Virus record (IMG/VR): IMGVR_UViG_3300046779_000230
Coordinates: 23,562-87,561 of that record
Reading direction: 5' to 3' (one strand)
DNA length: 64,000 nt
Source: a virus
Lineage: Duplodnaviria; Heunggongvirae; Uroviricota; Caudoviricetes
In this document: positions 23,471 to 63,786 of the stretch, piece after piece
Layout: the number at the start of each line of letters is the position of its first letter
Numbering within the stretch: the stretch's first letter is position 1
Program-made: the position numbers and the translations under genes
Notes under the pieces: generated by a model
Told to the model about the DNA's origin: nothing
Databases searched by the model: none
What the model saw: only the letters and a program-made list of their open reading frames with translations

Positions 23471-23706
23471 AGCGAGCGTGAAGGATAGCCAACAGCAAAG
23501 CCACTGGTGCCAATTTGGAAACTGCGAGAGGCTTTAGAACTCATTTTCTGAGTGGTGCGACGACGAGACTTTTTGGCTTTGACCACTTCAATCTGACCAC
23601 CACGAGCAAGGAATTGCTGTACAGCTTCAGATGTTTCTTCACGAACTTGTGATTTGGTTTTGTAGATAGTTGCTTGCATGATATAGTCCTCTTTCAAATT
23701 AAACAA
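23467..23706 (-). CDS. Hypothetical small basic protein
   Basis: Intact ORF. Confidence 0.35.
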   Translation of the reverse strand: MFNLKEDYIMQATIYKTKSQVREETSEAVQQFLARGGQIEVVKAKKSRRRTTQKMSSKASRSFQIGTSGFAVGYPSRSL

Positions 23707-58100: not shown

Positions 58101-58116
58101 TTATTTATTATTTATC
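58101..58116 (-). promoter_or_regulatory. Late-promoter-like element GATAAATAATAAATAA
   Basis: The minus strand reads tgGATAAATAATAAATAAC, 25 nt upstream of the gp13 ATG. It is identical as a 15-mer to the element at 48073..48087. Confidence 0.4.
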
Positions 58117-59149
58117 CAGTAAAAATGTTCTGATAGTCGTCTAGTAAGAACAACCACTCAGGCTCATGGATAGAAAATGTTGAAATCTTTTTTGGTTTAT
58201 TTCTAGCATAGTGTTCCATACCTCGATCCGCTAGAAAGTCTCTCATCTGCCATCTGTGTGTAGAAGAGTCGCCTTTAACTTTTGTAAATGGTTCGTTGGT
58301 GCTAATAGCCCACTGCTGAAATTCAATAGAATCAAAAAACCCATGAATCATTTTAGCTTTTTCTGGACTAAGAAGAATCTTGTGTTCGTATATCGCTGTA
58401 TACCAGTCTAGGTTAAAAATGCAATACCATCTAAGGTCTGCAATAGTTTCTATTTTTCTTGGTGAAGTTTGAATAATTGGGTTTAAAAATTCAAGCAAGT
58501 CTTCATTAACATTACCGATATAAGACTCATATATCGTTTCTTTGTTACCTAGTGTATGATGAAACATAGCCTTATCACCAGTAGCAAACATATCATCAGT
58601 TGGTCCAAACAATTGATTGCCACACATACCACTAACAAAGATAGAATCATCAGTATTGTGAAAGCTAAAGTTATTTCTGGCTCCAACTCTAATATCAAAT
58701 AAGAAATCGTTCTTTATCTTAGAGTCAAAAAGATCGCCAGATTCTATGATAGAATTATATGTACCGAACACTCTTACTTGATCTTTATCTACAGCAAACT
58801 CTTTTAAAATGTAAAGAATATATGTACTGTCGATGCCACCAGACCACATAACATTAATTTTCTTACCAGTAGATAGAAGTTCTTTAGCTCGACGCTCTGC
58901 AACTTCATGAAAGCTAGTGTTATAGTTTTCTACTCGTTTTGGGATTGGATGAAGGTTTGGAGTTATATCGAGAAAGTGTTTCAGGTTTCCAGTCCTATCA
59001 TAAACAGCATTATGCTTGTTTAGACCGAACCACTCATAACTCTCGAATACATCTCTTGTATTGGCTAAGAATGGTGTTGACTCTATTGTTTCTCGACTTC
59101 CAGTTAGAAGTTCTGATATTAGTTGTGGGTTATAATATAAAATAGACAT
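58112..59149 (-). CDS. Asparagine-synthetase-like PP-loop ATP pyrophosphatase (AsnB C-terminal-domain-like, stand-alone)
   Basis: KKINVMWSGGIDSTYILYIL is the SGGxDS PP-loop motif, in a 345-aa protein with no N-terminal amidotransferase domain. Confidence 0.6.
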   Translation of the reverse strand: MSILYYNPQLISELLTGSRETIESTPFLANTRDVFESYEWFGLNKHNAVYDRTGNLKHFLDITPNLHPIPKRVENYNTSFHEVAERRAKELLSTGKKINVMWSGGIDSTYILYILKEFAVDKDQVRVFGTYNSIIESGDLFDSKIKNDFLFDIRVGARNNFSFHNTDDSIFVSGMCGNQLFGPTDDMFATGDKAMFHHTLGNKETIYESYIGNVNEDLLEFLNPIIQTSPRKIETIADLRWYCIFNLDWYTAIYEHKILLSPEKAKMIHGFFDSIEFQQWAISTNEPFTKVKGDSSTHRWQMRDFLADRGMEHYARNKPKKISTFSIHEPEWLFLLDDYQNIFTG

Positions 59150-59168
59150 AGTGCCTCTAAGGAATCAA

Positions 59169-59185
59169 GGGAGCCGAAGCTCCCC
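59169..59185 (-). terminator. Stable hairpin with a UUCG tetraloop on the minus transcript; weak U tract
   Basis: The minus strand reads GGGAGC-UUCG-GCUCCC then UUGAUUCCUU, between the DctP-like gene and the PP-loop gene. Confidence 0.4.
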
Positions 59186-59189
59186 TTTA

Positions 59190-60137
59190 TCATTGCAATT
59201 TAATTTTTTCTACTAATCCAGGTGAGAAGTAGTCTTGGAATTTATCATATACTGTAGAAGTGATTTCTCTAAACTTAGATTCTTCTTCTTCACTCATCTT
59301 GACAACTTGAATGTCATTTTGTTTACATTGTTCAAGAATATTTGGGATATCAGCAACAGACTCTTTACGCTCTTGACGCGCTGCGTTAAATGCAGCAGTA
59401 GTCATAATCTTCTGAGTCTTTTTATCAAATTGCTTAAAGAAGTCTTGATTAACAATAATAGAAGTTAAGAACAAGCTATGTGATGTTTCGTTAACTATCT
59501 TGAAAGACTTATATTGATCTAATGGGAAAACACGAACGTATGTAGACTCACCTGCAGCAATCTCGCCTTTGTCTGCATACTGGTTCATTTCTTCCAAAGT
59601 GATATCTTCGCGTGGAATAGAACCAAGAGCCTTAAATGTTTCAACGGCAACTGGAGAACGAGAAGTTCTAACCACTTTACCTTTCCATGCATCTACAGTG
59701 TTTGCAGCAAATGTAGATGGAACAATACGGTAACCACCAGAGTATGTAAATGACATAGCTTTAATGTTGGAATTCTTAGAAACCCCAGCCAATAGTTCTG
59801 TGCCAATTTCACCTTCTAGAACACGGTCAGCGTGTTCATGATCTTTGAACAAAAACGGCAGATCAAATGCATGTAGATCTTTGTTGTAGTCACCAAGCCA
59901 AGTAGTGTAGATGTGAGACATCTCAATCTTACCTGTATTGATTAAATCCATAAGATCGTATTTTGTTACTTTCTTACCATCGTTATATTTTTCAGCATAG
60001 TCAGAAAGAGACAAAACTTCGATGTCAAACGCACCGTCCGTTTTCTCGTTAACTTCTTTTGCAAATCGTTCAGCTACCTTCAAAAACAAGCCGATTGGCT
60101 CGTGGGCGATAACCCATTTGACATGTTTAGTAGTCAT
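59190..60137 (-). CDS. TRAP-transporter DctP-like solute-binding-protein homolog lacking a signal peptide
   Basis: The N-terminus VKWVIAHEPIGLFLKVAERFAKEVNEKTDGAFDIEV follows the DctP-family pattern (xRxAHxxxxxHPxxxxAxxFAexVxexTxGxxxIxV) but starts directly at Met. Length 315 aa. Confidence 0.45.
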   Translation of the reverse strand: MTTKHVKWVIAHEPIGLFLKVAERFAKEVNEKTDGAFDIEVLSLSDYAEKYNDGKKVTKYDLMDLINTGKIEMSHIYTTWLGDYNKDLHAFDLPFLFKDHEHADRVLEGEIGTELLAGVSKNSNIKAMSFTYSGGYRIVPSTFAANTVDAWKGKVVRTSRSPVAVETFKALGSIPREDITLEEMNQYADKGEIAAGESTYVRVFPLDQYKSFKIVNETSHSLFLTSIIVNQDFFKQFDKKTQKIMTTAAFNAARQERKESVADIPNILEQCKQNDIQVVKMSEEEESKFREITSTVYDKFQDYFSPGLVEKIKLQ

Positions 60138-60436
60138 TTTAGTTCCTCTAAAACTTTGGTTTCAAAAAACCATTTTTCTGTTTGTGATTTTAAATCTATT
60201 TGCCTTCTTAAGAAGGGAGTTCTATTATTTATAAGAATCCTAATAATACTCTCTTCTGGAATTTCTTCTTTATTTAGGATCTGGGATGTCGGTATAACCG
60301 TATCTCTGTAACCATATTCCTTCGCAGAAGAGTCGTAAAAAAAGTAGTCCTTGACCGTGAATCCCTCACATCCACTTAGCGGAGATCTAGGGTACTGATT
60401 TATCTCGAATAGAAATTCATTAATATATGGTGTCAT
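60134..60436 (-). CDS. Hypothetical protein (100 aa), translationally coupled between the radical SAM gene and the DctP-like gene
   Basis: Overlaps both neighbours by 4 nt. Confidence 0.45.
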   Translation of the reverse strand: MTPYINEFLFEINQYPRSPLSGCEGFTVKDYFFYDSSAKEYGYRDTVIPTSQILNKEEIPEESIIRILINNRTPFLRRQIDLKSQTEKWFFETKVLEELK

Positions 60437-61806
60437 ACTGATACGATCGGAATTACTTTTTTCTTGGTTTCGACTTTTCCATTAATCATCCAGAAAATGT
60501 CTTTTCTGTCTTGTCTTAGTGGTCCATCGATATAAACTGGAATGTGTCCTGTTAAAATTTCAATAGCTGCACAAAAAATGACAATGTTGTCGCTAAATGA
60601 GTTATCGCATGTGGCTTCCCATAATGGACCAGTTAAAAAGAAACAAGCACCTTTACAGATGTGTAACACAGGGCACTTAGAACATTCTTCTCGATCACTC
60701 CAATGCGTTCCTGTTTTTATCTCAATATTTTTAAGATCTTTAACATTACCCAAGTGGTGTGAAATTCCAGATGGATTATGCGAAACTGTAGATACATTCT
60801 GGCAAGTTAAGACATTACCCTTTAAGTCTATAGCAATATTTTCAGACTTGTCCATACCACATTTCTGAGATAAGGTTTCTTTTCTAACTCCAGTTTCCAG
60901 AGACTTAATAAAGTTACTTATTTTTGTTTGTATTGTGCTGTATCGAGTAACACTGTCTGCGCGAAGTTCGTCGAATGTAAATTTTCTATAGTTAATATGA
61001 GATTCATCATTCATTAAAGAGTTAGCAGTACCACCCTCGTCGTATGCGTCAATAAAAGTGCCTTCGCCGATTGATAGGTACTTTACATATTCTTCACCAA
61101 GTTCTTTTCTGATTAACTCTTCGAAAAATAATTGAATGTTTTTACGGCTAATATTTTTGTTAGTTATCATAGAATTGAAACTAACACGACCTAGAGGAGC
61201 TAAAGTTTTATATGCGTAGATGATACCTTCTCTACTGGATGGGTCATCTAGTGGGTCTGGACCGCGAATAAATTGACCAACCGCATCATGAGAAATACCA
61301 ACAGTAAACCTTAAGTTGTTTAACCAATCAACCTTTTCTTTGTCTAGTAGACTACCATTAGTGATAATAGAAAATTCTGAGTTTGGATACTTAGCGCGAA
61401 TTTCTTCAGCAAGAGGTTTCAAGGTCTTCCAATATACTAGAGGTTCACCACCCCAAAATTCAAAGTATCTATTCGAACCCTTACCGTCTTCTCCACCATC
61501 AAACCATGATGGTATTTGTTCTACAAATTCTTGAATATCATTTGGGTTTGTAGAATCTGCGTGTGGCACAAATCTCTGATTGCAGTAATCACACTCGAAA
61601 TTACAAGAAAGACCAAGCTGTATCTTAACAGTTTTTGGTGCCTTGCCAATTTCTAGTTTTTTCTGAGATTGTGGGAGATTGTTTATTCTAGTTTCGATGA
61701 CAGCGGTGCCATCTTCCCATGTTAGGGTGCTAAACGTAGAATTATAGATCAATTTTTTAGTTAGACCGTCTTTTGGGTTAACTGATGTTATTACAAATTG
61801 TGACAT
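60433..61806 (-). CDS. Radical SAM enzyme with a C-terminal SPASM domain and an N-terminal RRE-like extension
   Basis: LSCNFECDYCNQ is the CxxxCxxC cluster. WGGEPL is the SAM glycine motif. The SPASM cysteines are KCGMDKSENIAIDLKGNVLTC and CSKCPVLHICKGAC. About 65 aa precede the radical SAM core. Confidence 0.8.
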   Translation of the reverse strand: MSQFVITSVNPKDGLTKKLIYNSTFSTLTWEDGTAVIETRINNLPQSQKKLEIGKAPKTVKIQLGLSCNFECDYCNQRFVPHADSTNPNDIQEFVEQIPSWFDGGEDGKGSNRYFEFWGGEPLVYWKTLKPLAEEIRAKYPNSEFSIITNGSLLDKEKVDWLNNLRFTVGISHDAVGQFIRGPDPLDDPSSREGIIYAYKTLAPLGRVSFNSMITNKNISRKNIQLFFEELIRKELGEEYVKYLSIGEGTFIDAYDEGGTANSLMNDESHINYRKFTFDELRADSVTRYSTIQTKISNFIKSLETGVRKETLSQKCGMDKSENIAIDLKGNVLTCQNVSTVSHNPSGISHHLGNVKDLKNIEIKTGTHWSDREECSKCPVLHICKGACFFLTGPLWEATCDNSFSDNIVIFCAAIEILTGHIPVYIDGPLRQDRKDIFWMINGKVETKKKVIPIVSV

Positions 61807-61826
61807 TATATACCTTAAATGAAATT

Positions 61827-61843
61827 CTGGGGACTAGCCCCAG
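61827..61843 (-). terminator. Hairpin ctgggg/ccccag with a 5-nt loop, possibly a terminator or processing site
   Basis: Located in the 46-nt gap between the 259-aa gene and the radical SAM gene. Confidence 0.35.
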
Positions 61844-61852
61844 AAGTATTTA

Positions 61853-62632
61853 TCAAGAAATTGTTATGGTAAAATCAGCTATACCTGTGTATTTTCTATG
61901 ACCAGCCTTAACTCTCACTAAGTCTCCAACATCCATACCAGTAGTTAAAAGTTTAAACGAACCAGAACCATTGGTTAATGGCACTCTAAGTTTATTTGGA
62001 ATTCCATAAACTTGCTCTAAATAAACTTCCTTGACAGTAGGGCTAGAAGAAACATCAATAGTAATACTAGAGTCTACTCCGACAGAAGACTGTGTAGAAG
62101 ATAATGTCACTGGAGCTATTAGATCTCTAGTGAAACGAACTGTTTCGCTTGTGACATGTTGAGCAGATGGACCTTCTACGATATAATCTACATCATCGCT
62201 ATCTTTGATAACATATGTAAAGTCCGTGAAATCTCCCTCAGAATCTTCAACGAAAATTCCAAACGGTGTGTAGAAAAAACCAGATTCCTGAGAATACCCT
62301 TGTTTCTTAGAGACTAGTGTTTCTGCCAATAAATCTATGACCATTGGCGCGCAAACTGGATGGTGTGTATTATTCCCATCAGAATCTAATAATGGATAAC
62401 AACTTTCTACAATAGTCCACACAGACTGATCACAGAAACCTTTTGATGCCTTTAATGTTTGTAAAGACATTTCACACCAAAATATTTCTTTGTACTCTCC
62501 ATCTTTATTCACAGAGACTTTAACTTCTAGTGTTTCAGGTTGTATATTCAAAAATATCTTGGGTGGTGTTAGGTTTTCACCCGCTTCTTTATTGAAGATT
62601 GTGTTTGGCGTTTTCGATCTAATAATTCTCAT
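61853..62632 (-). CDS. Hypothetical structural protein, beta-rich
   Basis: 259-aa ORF between the fibre-like gene and the radical SAM gene. Confidence 0.45.
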   Translation of the reverse strand: MRIIRSKTPNTIFNKEAGENLTPPKIFLNIQPETLEVKVSVNKDGEYKEIFWCEMSLQTLKASKGFCDQSVWTIVESCYPLLDSDGNNTHHPVCAPMVIDLLAETLVSKKQGYSQESGFFYTPFGIFVEDSEGDFTDFTYVIKDSDDVDYIVEGPSAQHVTSETVRFTRDLIAPVTLSSTQSSVGVDSSITIDVSSSPTVKEVYLEQVYGIPNKLRVPLTNGSGSFKLLTTGMDVGDLVRVKAGHRKYTGIADFTITIS

Positions 62633-62640
62633 AGATTACC

Positions 62641-63786
62641 TTAACAGTTGCAGTTGCAGTTACAATTATGTGCACGAAGAACCATGTTAGTTCCTTGTCT
62701 AATTGTATCATACCAAGTTGTGTCATGTCCTGGGGGATTACGTGAAGCATTACCCATACAGTTACCTACAGCTCGACCACCACCACCGTCAACGAAGAAA
62801 CCATAGTTACCTAAGTTGTTAACGAATTGAGATAGGTGACCTGGACGACCTTGTACGTTACCCCATGGAGTCACTTCAGCATAGAATGCATATCCAACGT
62901 TAGTTACGCTAACTGCTCCAGTGTTACCTTGAACAGATGTAACTGGGACTGAGACTACAACTGCGCCAGTGTTACCTTGAACAGATGTAACATGAGCAGA
63001 AACTGTTGGATTACCAGCAACACCATCTCCGTTAGAAACTGTAATACCACCACCAGCAACAATAGTTCTTGTTGCCATAGAACCAGTACCAGTTCTTGAA
63101 AGCATACCAGTTGTTGTCAAACCAGAAAGAGCAGACAAGTCAGAGTCGAATGGCTGAACGTCAGTACCGATTGTTAGACCAAGAGTGGCACGAGCAGTTA
63201 TTGCATCGCCATCGTCTAACAGAGTTCTGGCATATGGCGTCAAGCTAGTAGTATCGGCAGTGCCAAGACCTGTGTAATAAGGCAATGTATTTGCTGCAGA
63301 TGTTGTTGCAGCTAGGGCATCTAACTCTAGATTCCATGCTTGTACATCAGAACCAATGGCTAGACCCAAGTTAGTTCTAGCGCCAGCTGATGTAGATGAG
63401 CCAGTACCACCGTCTGCGATTGCCAAGTCTGTGATACCTTGGATTAAACCACTGGTAATCGCTGCTTCACCAGAATGTTTACCACTAAAATCTGCAGCTG
63501 TGATTACGTTGGCTTCAAAGTTACCTGAAGCATCACGAACTACTGCAGAGCTTTTATCAGCACCAGCTGGTAGCAATACAGATGCACTATAACCATCTAG
63601 TAAGTCGGCATCTAAGCCAGAACCGCTGCCGTCAACTGTTTTAAGTTTAGTTAAGATATCAGCTGCATTATAATCAACAGCTGTTAATTTTGTGGCTAAT
63701 TCGTTGTTCAGGTTACTAAAGTTTGCATCGACTTCAGCGTTAGTCAGCGGACTTCCTTTAGTACCTCTTAATGTAATAACTGCCAT
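62641..63786 (-). CDS. Tail-fibre-like protein with a C-terminal HNCNCNCNC repeat
   Basis: N-terminus [27 protein letters not shown]. Gly/Thr/Ser/Ala-rich fibre-like body with a duplicated [12 protein letters not shown](V/S)V motif. The terminal ...[13 protein letters not shown] was verified on the DNA (cat aat tgt aac tgc aac tgc aac tgt taa). Confidence 0.55.

Follow-up and report, generated by a model that had tools for sequence, protein, structure and literature searches.

Radical S-adenosylmethionine (SAM) enzymes carrying a SPASM domain catalyse many different reactions, and in those of the CteB, PapB, NxxcB and QhpD type a cysteine of the substrate is the sulfur donor while hydrogen is taken from the acceptor carbon (PMC8326336). 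The known Cβ acceptors are Asn, in the N-x-x-C motif of NxxcA, and Asp, in freyrasin and QhpC, and CteB has a three-cysteine auxiliary cluster with an open site which binds the substrate cysteine (PMC8326336). Here we describe a locus in a 64,000-nucleotide stretch of DNA (the window) from the Caudoviricetes record IMGVR_UViG_3300046779_000230, positions 23,562 to 87,561, in which a 457-aa radical SAM/SPASM enzyme (60433..61806, minus strand, as are all window features below) is encoded close to a 381-aa fibre-like structural protein (62641..63786) ending in His-(Asn-Cys)4. Across unrelated phage backbones the Asn-Cys (NC) repeat tail and this enzyme family go together, whichever of the two one starts from. 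This points to an enzymatic modification of a virion host-recognition protein that has not been described before, most likely thioether cross-linking. On balance we favour a phage protein-maturation module that resembles the systems for peptides that are made on the ribosome and then modified post-translationally (RiPPs) and which in its minimal form would consist of a protein ending in (Asn/Asp-Cys)n and a dedicated radical SAM/SPASM enzyme.

A run of (NC)n is a series of overlapping N-x-x-C motifs and in this it resembles NxxcA, on which the SPASM enzyme NxxcB makes a thioether from Cys-S to Asn-Cβ (PMC8326336); however, NxxcA is a short leader-containing peptide with one cross-link, whereas here we have a 381-aa fibre with a terminal repeat, no detectable RiPP recognition element (RRE) in the enzyme and no division into leader and core. 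There was no specific NxxcB model among the listed matches, and the likeness is one of motif and proposed chemistry. PapB, which makes freyrasin, and CteB of the SCIFF system share with the window enzyme the seven-cysteine SPASM domain with a three-cysteine auxiliary cluster, and they provide its best family match and its closest solved structure. Freyrasin carries six repeated Cys-Asp Cβ-thioethers (PMC8326336), but with CX3D spacing instead of alternating NC, and the module here is phage-encoded with a structural protein as presumed substrate. QhpD, which puts Cys-Asp and Cys-Glu thioethers inside a protein subunit (PMC8326336), is a precedent for stapling at the protein level, although its substrate QhpC is a small enzyme subunit with dispersed cysteines, in contrast to a terminal tandem repeat on a virion protein. 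anSME is likewise a SPASM enzyme acting on a cysteine of a full-length protein, but no sulfatase is encoded near the window enzyme. Finally, where a classical RiPP cluster has a short leader/core precursor and a protease or exporter, the module has a 381-aa substrate and neither protease nor transporter. We rate the enzymology as that of RiPP/SPASM systems. What we regard as new is that the substrate class is a virion fibre, that its motif is a minimal (Asn-Cys)n at the terminus, that no RRE is detectable and that one version is coupled to a Hint domain. A full-text literature search, covering the NC repeat, radical SAM enzymes with tail fibres or Hint domains, and phages JWF and RSP15, returned no published description, in agreement with the initial annotation of the window, which knew of no described equivalent in T4-like phages. 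A cyanophage radical SAM 'maturase', which may or may not belong to this family, has been listed among 'antibiotic synthesis genes' (PMC12801897).

Two-way coupling of the enzyme and the NC tail

The region gave no megablast match against 50,697 phage records, and the phage has no close cultured relative. Among annotated phages, close homologs of the enzyme (42–47% identity) are found only in Achromobacter phages JWF and 2-1 and in Ralstonia phage RSP15. In each of these phages it comes right after a fibre-like gene and a ~250-aa hypothetical gene, and the fibres read ...KPRQNCNCDCNCNCS followed by CFPAGT... in JWF, ...KPRANCNCDCNCS followed by CFPAGT... in 2-1, and ...SMSNTNCQCGN before the stop in RSP15. 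Scans recovered relatives of the enzyme on viral contigs (at least 487) and on genome contigs (at least 176), the latter mostly freshwater Burkholderiales metagenome-assembled genomes (MAGs) and isolates, with some Alphaproteobacteria. The family comprises 2,690 protein clusters, all listed ones being named 'uncharacterized protein', and the JWF copy (gp030) was originally annotated as anSME.

From the enzyme side, we considered 130 loci (referred to by L numbers where needed) centred on the radical SAM gene with at least 2.5 kb upstream, and scored as a tail any same-strand upstream open reading frame (ORF) with an Asn/Asp-rich (X-Cys)n run of at least three units. The motif is found there far beyond chance: 120 of the 130 loci have an upstream tail gene, as compared with a background of 7 in 11,988 other ORF segments of related loci, and in 119 loci the NC-tailed genes are homologous to the window fibre (fam2). 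The exceptions are mostly motif variants (terminal NCQCGN or NCRNCNC) or loci where the upstream region is filled by other genes or is unclear; another three come from bacteria and contain transporter genes. Starting from the motif, we scanned DNA for (AAYTGY)4, discarded many matches in giant-virus MAGs as short or internal low-complexity repeats, and obtained 58 ORFs with a C-terminal (NC)4 tail. The enzyme is encoded in the locus for 49 of these, and the remaining nine all have less than 2.7 kb downstream. Within the fibre family itself we took closed ORFs followed by 3.5 kb or more of sequence: tail and enzyme are both present for 15, both absent for 15, six have the enzyme and no tail, and one has a tail with no enzyme within 5.5 kb. 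In all six cases of an enzyme with no tail, the fibre is followed directly by a separate ~130-aa NC-rich protein.

The NC-repeat tail and this radical SAM family are thus coupled in both directions across unrelated phage backbones, which supports a functional link between enzyme and tail. The initial annotation had suggested their co-occurrence as a check and this came out strongly positive from either side, with the cluster essentially not found in relatives that lack the repeat. In 121 complete modules the order is NC-tailed protein, then a protein of the family of the 259-aa window gene described below (p259; 105/121) or of an alternative family (8/121), then optional accessory genes, then the radical SAM enzyme; the two-gene minimal form occurs in L063, L125, L138 and L163. 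Backbones range from Achromobacter siphovirus JWF and phage 2-1, Ralstonia phage RSP15 and T4-like phages to Burkholderiales prophages, and include myovirus, siphovirus and prophage contexts.

It could be argued that the enzyme is an auxiliary metabolic or 'antibiotic synthesis' gene that hitch-hikes in the host-recognition region and has no link to the fibre, since that region is hypervariable (PMC7029224) and genes of this kind have been presented in genome papers as cassettes or auxiliary metabolic genes (PMC7029224, PMC12801897). However, the coupling holds in both directions over unrelated backbones and gene orders, minimal modules exist, and presence and absence covary within one fibre family, all of which makes this explanation strongly disfavoured, and we give it hardly any weight.

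Some variants of the arrangement were seen in passing. In a T4-like subgroup (L323-L334, L385-L405) the fibre ends in a coiled coil, while a second protein of ~125-139 aa carries the NC motifs: it contains CNACNSACNCNCGNCD internally and has an (NC/AC)n run at its C-terminus. Next come a radical SAM enzyme of 36-42% identity, the DctP homolog and the PP-loop gene. In some alphaproteobacterial loci (L130, L134-L136, L152) two members of the radical SAM family (fam0) apparently stand in tandem, ahead of the downstream genes. Small viral ORFs with the motif (L173, L225, L240, L266; L236, L263, L279) comprise a group of 67-82 aa, ending in (T/S)RG and two further residues, and another of 134 aa, and their loci contain only very distant radical SAM homologs (23-29% identity).

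The terminal repeat and its context

The N-terminal and central parts of the window fibre consist of typical phage-fibre repeats, and its matches to PHROG tail-fibre families (phrog_24210 at E=1.6e-12, and others) bear out its earlier description as a fibre-like protein. It ends, as also noted there, in HNCNCNCNC. This end is encoded by CAT AAT TGT AAC TGC AAC TGC AAC TGT TAA (62670-62641), with the proposed modification site or 'core' at 62644..62670 directly before the stop; as the codons are mixed, the DNA is a hexanucleotide repeat only in part. Across related loci the X-Cys run has 3-9 units and the X residue is Asn in 76%, Asp in 9% and Ala in 7% of cases, with Val, Gln or Arg also seen. 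The preference for Asn/Asp (85%) matches the known Cβ-thioether acceptors.

The repeat lies 0-4 residues from the stop codon in 109/120 related loci. In six others it is followed directly by a Hint domain, which starts at the +1 Cys of the repeat (...NCNCS followed by CFPAGT): in JWF gp028, residues 308-344 match positions 1-37 of Hom_end_hint at 47.5 bits (cut-off 32.1), a match limited to these first 37 profile positions and starting at the Cys after ...NCNCS. Judging from the sequence, once Hint had cleaved itself off, the mature C-terminus would once more consist of the repeat. Taken together, the terminal position in most loci and the Hint versions indicate that selection seems to act on a terminal repeat. 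Removal of a C-terminal domain by its own activity after assembly is a known theme of phage fibres, and fibres of the JWF type share with such self-cleaving C-termini and with Hint/BIL proteins the Hint module, here right after the repeat; we know of no earlier description of a Hint domain coupled to a radical SAM substrate motif. The C-FPAGT junction type is found in JWF, 2-1, Burkholderia paludis MSh1 (L121) and L132, while L079 and L104 have another Hint-type junction after the repeat, ...NCNCSTC followed by CFPLDTEVAMG and ...NCNCGTC followed by CFPLDTQITMA, respectively.

Upstream of the repeat, a regular-expression search picked out a turn-strand element, (D/E/Q)xG(G/S)x-Phi-x-Phi, present in 30 tails; in 26 of them its distance to the repeat is exactly 13 residues. 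These tails come from T4-like phages and prophages, across clades, and the element could be a candidate for recognition, no more. When the tails were anchored at the repeat start and searched column by column for a leader-like motif, nothing but a β-strand-like alternation emerged.

In the window fibre His373 is in register with the four cysteines (H-x-C-x-C-x-C-x-C) and could form a metal-binding face with them, and several T4-like relatives (L014, L022, L027, L030, L032, L365) have His-rich stretches such as DPHHHH or DPHHHYY directly before the NC tail. This brings in a different explanation, in which (NC)n is mainly a metal or Fe-S site of a trimeric fibre tip and the radical SAM enzyme acts indirectly, or on the 259-aa protein or a host surface component. 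T4 gp37 has His-x-His iron sites in its needle and provides an analogy. The alternation would put all the cysteines and His373 on one face of a strand, several relatives have segments rich in His (DPHHHH, NHNH) ahead of the tail, and in one lineage the accessory genes discussed below stand beside IscU/IscA-like genes. A passive site, however, needs no dedicated radical SAM enzyme, yet the two-way coupling and the two-gene modules persist; small peptide-like versions of the substrate exist; and Cys-rich substrates are the donors in SPASM thioether synthases (PMC8326336). We thus regard a mainly metal-binding role as improbable.

The radical SAM/SPASM enzyme and its proposed chemistry

The window enzyme belongs to the radical SAM superfamily (PF04055, 38.1 bits, cut-off 29.5) and to its SPASM subfamily (TIGR04085, 34.5, cut-off 27), and it matches phrog_1802 at 218 bits. 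Its CX3CX2C motif (C68-X3-C72-X2-C75; residues 68-75, nt 61582-61605) and the seven SPASM cysteines (C316-X13-G330-X4-C335, C375-X2-C378-X5-C384-X3-C388 and C400; residues 316-400, nt 60607-60861) are invariant in 146 distinct family members, which have exactly these 10 invariant cysteines (3 + 7). The full SPASM domain noted in the initial annotation is therefore real. The RRE-sized N-terminal extension, also proposed there, is not supported: the β-rich segment before the core (~residues 1-57) is only ~57-60 aa long, ~40 aa shorter than the ~96 aa that precede the aligned core in CteB, and it has no PqqD/RRE match in Pfam even at E≤10.

The best NCBIfam matches are PapB, anSME, the nif11-peptide maturase, QhpD, DynA and the SCIFF maturase, all far under the family cut-offs (for example 60.8 vs 340 for PapB, NF047865, and 38.0 vs 425 for SCIFF, TIGR03974). 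The closest solved structures by sequence are CteB (5wgg, E=1.6e-6), then anSME, and in HMMER alignments both the family and CteB have a single Cys where anSME has CGMNGTC. By sequence, then, the enzyme resembles the thioether-forming maturases PapB, CteB and QhpD as well as anSME and is a member of none of these families. The RiPP-maturase architecture that had been assigned to it holds in so far as it groups with SPASM peptide and protein maturases, and falls short in that it scores below the cut-offs of PapB/SCIFF and anSME.

Specific identities were considered and rejected. An anSME is not supported by the score (TIGR03942, 59.1 vs 349.45), by the tail, which lacks C/S-x-P/A-x-R, or by the SPASM cysteines, of which there are 7 and not 8. 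The QhpD match (TIGR03906, 47.3 vs 453) covers the radical SAM core only, and the neighbours are phage structural genes. PADLOC and NCBIfam matches to prokaryotic viperin (pVip) extend only over ~residues 62-176, the generic core, and a SPASM domain is present. QueE and NrdG-type enzymes, named at the outset as identities that would speak against a maturase, are likewise excluded by the grouping with SPASM maturases in NCBIfam.

We propose the following mechanism. In the host cytoplasm the enzyme would bind the exposed C-terminal tail of the newly made fibre, and the open iron of auxiliary cluster I would be ligated by a tail Cys thiolate. The 5'-deoxyadenosyl radical would then take a hydrogen from a carbon of the neighbouring Asn/Asp, and thioether bridges from Cys-S to carbon would arise. 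This would give the fibre a C-terminal tip that is covalently stapled and insensitive to redox conditions, with the staples forming a ladder of overlapping Asn-Cβ-S-Cys rings within one chain or links between fibre chains. The tail is very probably the direct substrate; that the chemistry is thioether formation is an assignment by analogy, for and against which we see the case as evenly balanced. We propose it because (NC)n forms overlapping N-x-x-C motifs, because Asn/Asp are found at most X positions and because the seven-cysteine arrangement is CteB-like. Thioethers, moreover, could be made in the cytoplasm, whose reducing conditions prevent disulfides from forming.

Distant members of the enzyme family are found in more RiPP-like settings. 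In a Bacteriovorax MAG (L162:1970-4624) a 63-aa ORF ending SACACGGPCACGGPCY is found with a periplasmic-binding-protein-like gene (weak Phosphonate-bd match) and a 34%-identical family member; with its X-Cys alternation, the same as in the tails, the peptide has the look of a classical RiPP precursor. A second radical SAM gene, fused to a peptidase-MA-like region, lies upstream in this locus. In L150 (2500-8317) and L156, family members of 38-40% identity are encoded directly downstream of a C39-peptidase ABC exporter and an HlyD protein. Neither locus has a fibre gene or an obvious NC peptide, and both may be secreted-peptide versions of the system. The classical RiPP features missing from the window module (the C39-ABC transporter and HlyD, the short Cys-rich peptide) are thus present in these relatives, and their settings support peptide-type X-Cys substrates for the family.

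The same substrate could also undergo other radical chemistry, namely anSME-like oxidation of Cys to formylglycine, epimerisation of alternate residues, or a C-C, C-N or C-O cross-link. D/L-alternating peptides arise by epimerisation in proteusins, and formylglycine would equip the fibre tip with reactive aldehydes. A processive enzyme working on alternate residues would go well with the strict two-residue periodicity, anSME is both the second-best family match (59.1 bits) and the second-closest solved structure, and the reactions of SPASM enzymes are diverse (PMC8326336). Nevertheless, the tail lacks the anSME motif, the conserved SPASM cysteines number seven and not anSME's eight, the top NCBIfam match is a thioether-forming enzyme, and Asn/Asp beside every Cys is the signature of known Cβ-thioether acceptors, so that we regard such alternatives as unlikely.

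Several observations weigh against thioether stapling of the tail by this enzyme. Ala, Val, Gln or Arg at some X positions mean that not every X can serve as an Asn/Asp acceptor, and the register of His373 together with the His-rich stretches before the tail would also fit a metal-binding site. The enzyme scores far below the cut-offs of every characterised family, even that of its best match, PapB, and it has no detectable RRE with which to recognise a 381-aa folded or trimerising substrate. L394 encodes an NC protein with no radical SAM gene within 5.2 kb, and we count it, with L423, on this side. Also, our counts include related contigs of shared ancestry and hence overstate the number of independent events, although this is mitigated by the representation of at least five distinct backbones and gene orders.

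If confirmed, stapling of NC tails would be a new class of covalent modification of phage host-recognition proteins, with RiPP-type radical SAM maturases acting on full-length virion proteins. No earlier case would exist of a virion protein, structural or receptor-binding, being modified post-translationally by a radical SAM enzyme, and RiPP logic would extend to large proteins. The family is large and is currently annotated as 'uncharacterized', 'anSME' or 'antibiotic synthesis'. The idea also offers a concrete explanation for the 'radical SAM cassettes' in host-recognition clusters of aquatic T4-like phages. The (Asn-Cys)n C-terminal motif is also very simple and could serve as a portable tag for enzymatic stapling of peptides and proteins.

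Accessory genes and anatomy of the window locus

All genes between 57.3 and 63.8 kb in the ORF list of the window are on the minus strand. In the direction of transcription the fibre-like gene is followed by the 259-aa gene, a 46-nt gap with a hairpin, the radical SAM gene, a 100-aa gene, a 315-aa DctP homolog and a 345-aa PP-loop protein, downstream of which lie T4-type gp13, gp14, gp15 and the large terminase (TerL). The initial gene coordinates and strand are correct, as third-party gene calls on three independent assemblies agree exactly; these carry the Pfam labels Phage_T4_gp13, T4_neck-protein and T4-gp15. The fibre gene does not directly adjoin the enzyme genes, as had been thought: the conserved 259-aa gene (61853..62632) lies between them and was overlooked.

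The predicted structure of the 259-aa protein (predicted local distance difference test score, pLDDT, of 84) is all-β with a C-terminal intimin/invasin-like Ig domain and contains no enzyme fold, and its structural relatives among viral proteins are all uncharacterised. Neither this nor the 100-aa protein has a Pfam, NCBIfam, PHROG or PADLOC family match, the latter having none even at E≤10. On the strength of the model p259 is probably a non-enzymatic partner of the fibre with a structural, adaptor or chaperone role; in the proposed mechanism it would be a stoichiometric adaptor, chaperone or distal piece and not an enzyme.

The gap between p259 and the radical SAM gene contains a stem-loop (61825..61845; 8 bp, of which 5 G-C; -12.5 kcal/mol) followed by TTTCATTT. 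A stable hairpin with a U-tract is found at the same position in 17 of 21 clade relatives (L005-L034) with different stem sequences, and may be a leaky terminator or attenuator between structural and enzyme genes. Its conservation fits high expression of fibre and p259 with lower, putative read-through into the enzyme genes. An ATAAATA motif, similar to the T4 late promoter, is often found just upstream of the hairpin stem.

Of the accessory genes the most frequent were also overlooked at first: 2-oxoglutarate (2OG)-Fe(II) oxygenases (PF13759, PF13640; fam3/fam8) are encoded in 66/121 modules. They occupy the same slot as the trio of window genes described below, between the p259-like gene and the radical SAM gene, with up to four in tandem (e.g. 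L043:1391-3612), and are present in most prophage and phage modules. Their targets may be Asn/Asp of the tail, for hydroxylation, or collagen-like Pro. A third accessory set, between the NC protein and the radical SAM enzyme in L058, L064, L077, L080 and L394, consists of 276-aa proteins similar to RSP15 gp046 (H-x-D...H, no Pfam match) and one or two fatty-acid-desaturase-like membrane proteins (PF00487).

The trio of the window comprises the 100-aa protein (p100; 60134..60436), the DctP homolog (59190..60137) and the PP-loop protein (58112..59149). The p100 gene has a 4-nt overlap with the neighbouring gene at each end, which indicates translational coupling. The DctP homolog is a member of the DctP solute-binding-protein (SBP) family of tripartite ATP-independent periplasmic (TRAP) transporters (PF03480, 148.3 bits, cut-off 23.4, E=3.7e-43; NF037995, 101.8, cut-off 50). 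As first described, it has no signal peptide: its N-terminus, which lacks a hydrophobic h-region, aligns to the mature protein. The 64-kb window contains no polytopic membrane ORF similar to DctQ or DctM, and a host-encoded copy may provide the membrane partner. The PP-loop protein has the SGGxDS motif (residues 103-108, nt 58826-58843) and the AsnB-type synthetase fold, and its description as a stand-alone enzyme stands: its 345 aa align only to synthetase domains, without the Ntn glutaminase domain (PF00733 Asn_synthase, 14 bits vs a cut-off of 21). A sequence search against the PDB gave no match for it, and its fold had to be recognised by structural comparison. It probably adenylates a carboxylate. 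From AsnB, β-lactam synthetase, CarA, TsnB9 and the lasso cyclases of the same superfamily it differs in lacking the glutaminase domain and in always occurring with p100 and often with an SBP.

The complete trio is found in only 23 of the 121 complete modules. It is absent from 98, including JWF, RSP15 and the prophage versions and all cultured phages, and it never occurs together with the 2OG-oxygenase set (0/121). A scan centred on the PP-loop gene covered 497 viral contigs; in loci with at least 39% identity and adequate flanks a radical SAM gene is nearby in ~45 of ~58, in at least five gene orders, and in L037, L047, L291 and L322 the trio is inserted between p259 and the radical SAM gene. 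In L315 the p100/PP-loop pair is next to a distant radical SAM enzyme and a 918-aa fibre. On the other hand, in L293-L299 and L312-L313 the trio has no radical SAM or NC gene within 8 kb and stands between ribonucleotide reductase (RNR)/glutaredoxin and IscU/IscA-like genes. L340 (6477-10847) has the p100-like/PP-loop pair followed by genes for a class-I glutamine amidotransferase-like protein, for a membrane protein similar to TctA and for a TctC-like binding protein that bears a signal peptide, which suggests uptake and amidation of a small carboxylate. Whatever the arrangement, and also where a radical SAM gene is absent, the PP-loop gene was seen together with p100, and an SBP is often present too. 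The stable unit is therefore p100 plus the PP-loop enzyme, often with an SBP, a separable carboxylate-activating cassette.

Is the whole six-gene set of the window then one pathway? In such a scenario the AsnB-like enzyme, p100 and a cytoplasmic DctP would adenylate a carboxylate of the fibre, before or after the radical SAM enzyme has acted. The target would most likely be that of the C-terminal Cys, which would be amidated, cyclised or ligated, a functional counterpart of the thioester activation by Hint in JWF-type fibres. The trio is translationally coupled to the radical SAM gene in the window, a radical SAM gene is near the PP-loop gene in most of the loci just described, in some with the trio inside the module, and the AsnB fold activates carboxylates. 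The DctP homolog, which has neither signal peptide nor membrane partners, aligns across the whole family profile, with VVRTS opposite KIRTL of 4p47 at the segment whose Arg we take to be the carboxylate-binding Arg of the family, and the exclusion between trio and oxygenases is as expected of alternative tailoring sets. However, the exclusion may only mirror phage lineage, the trio is missing from most modules, all those of cultured phages included, it can stand without a radical SAM or NC gene beside RNR and IscU/IscA genes, the L340 arrangement points to a small-molecule substrate, and the tails in trio loci have no Asp or Glu to amidate. Since these tails encode no Asp, we also rejected, as a leading explanation, that the AsnB-like enzyme amidates Asp to Asn in the tail. 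A single six-gene pathway therefore appears doubtful to us, and equally tentative is a part for the trio in fibre maturation, for example as an activator of the C-terminal carboxylate, much as the Hint thioester would be. In the mechanism that we propose for the NC tail, the trio would be docked to the module in this phage clade and may add a step of this kind. The earlier suggestion of a system modifying a virion protein is thus supported for the enzyme and the tail, while the AsnB-like, DctP and 100-aa proteins are not established as parts of it, given their presence in a minority of modules. Seen more broadly, a large and mostly aquatic group of phages and prophages might carry stapled C-terminal fibre tips with interchangeable tailoring sets (2OG oxygenases, the AsnB-type cassette, Hint), a generalisation which is attractive but which we hold with some reserve.

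Some minor features of the accessory genes may be added. In L296 (6527-9732) a small membrane protein (...VTWRILVTITNFFGGWLASGNPWVGLGV...) precedes the trio, IscU-like and IscA-like genes follow it, and a DnaK/HscA-like gene lies further downstream. A sigma-70 promoter scan gave matches at chance level only, and the T4 late-promoter sequence TATAAATA has two exact copies in the 64-kb window, which is not above chance; one of them (60226-60233, minus) is within the p100 gene and precedes the start of the DctP gene by ~90 nt. A second G+C-rich palindrome (GGGAGCCGAAGCTCCC, 59169-59184) is found in the 40 nt that separate the DctP and PP-loop genes.

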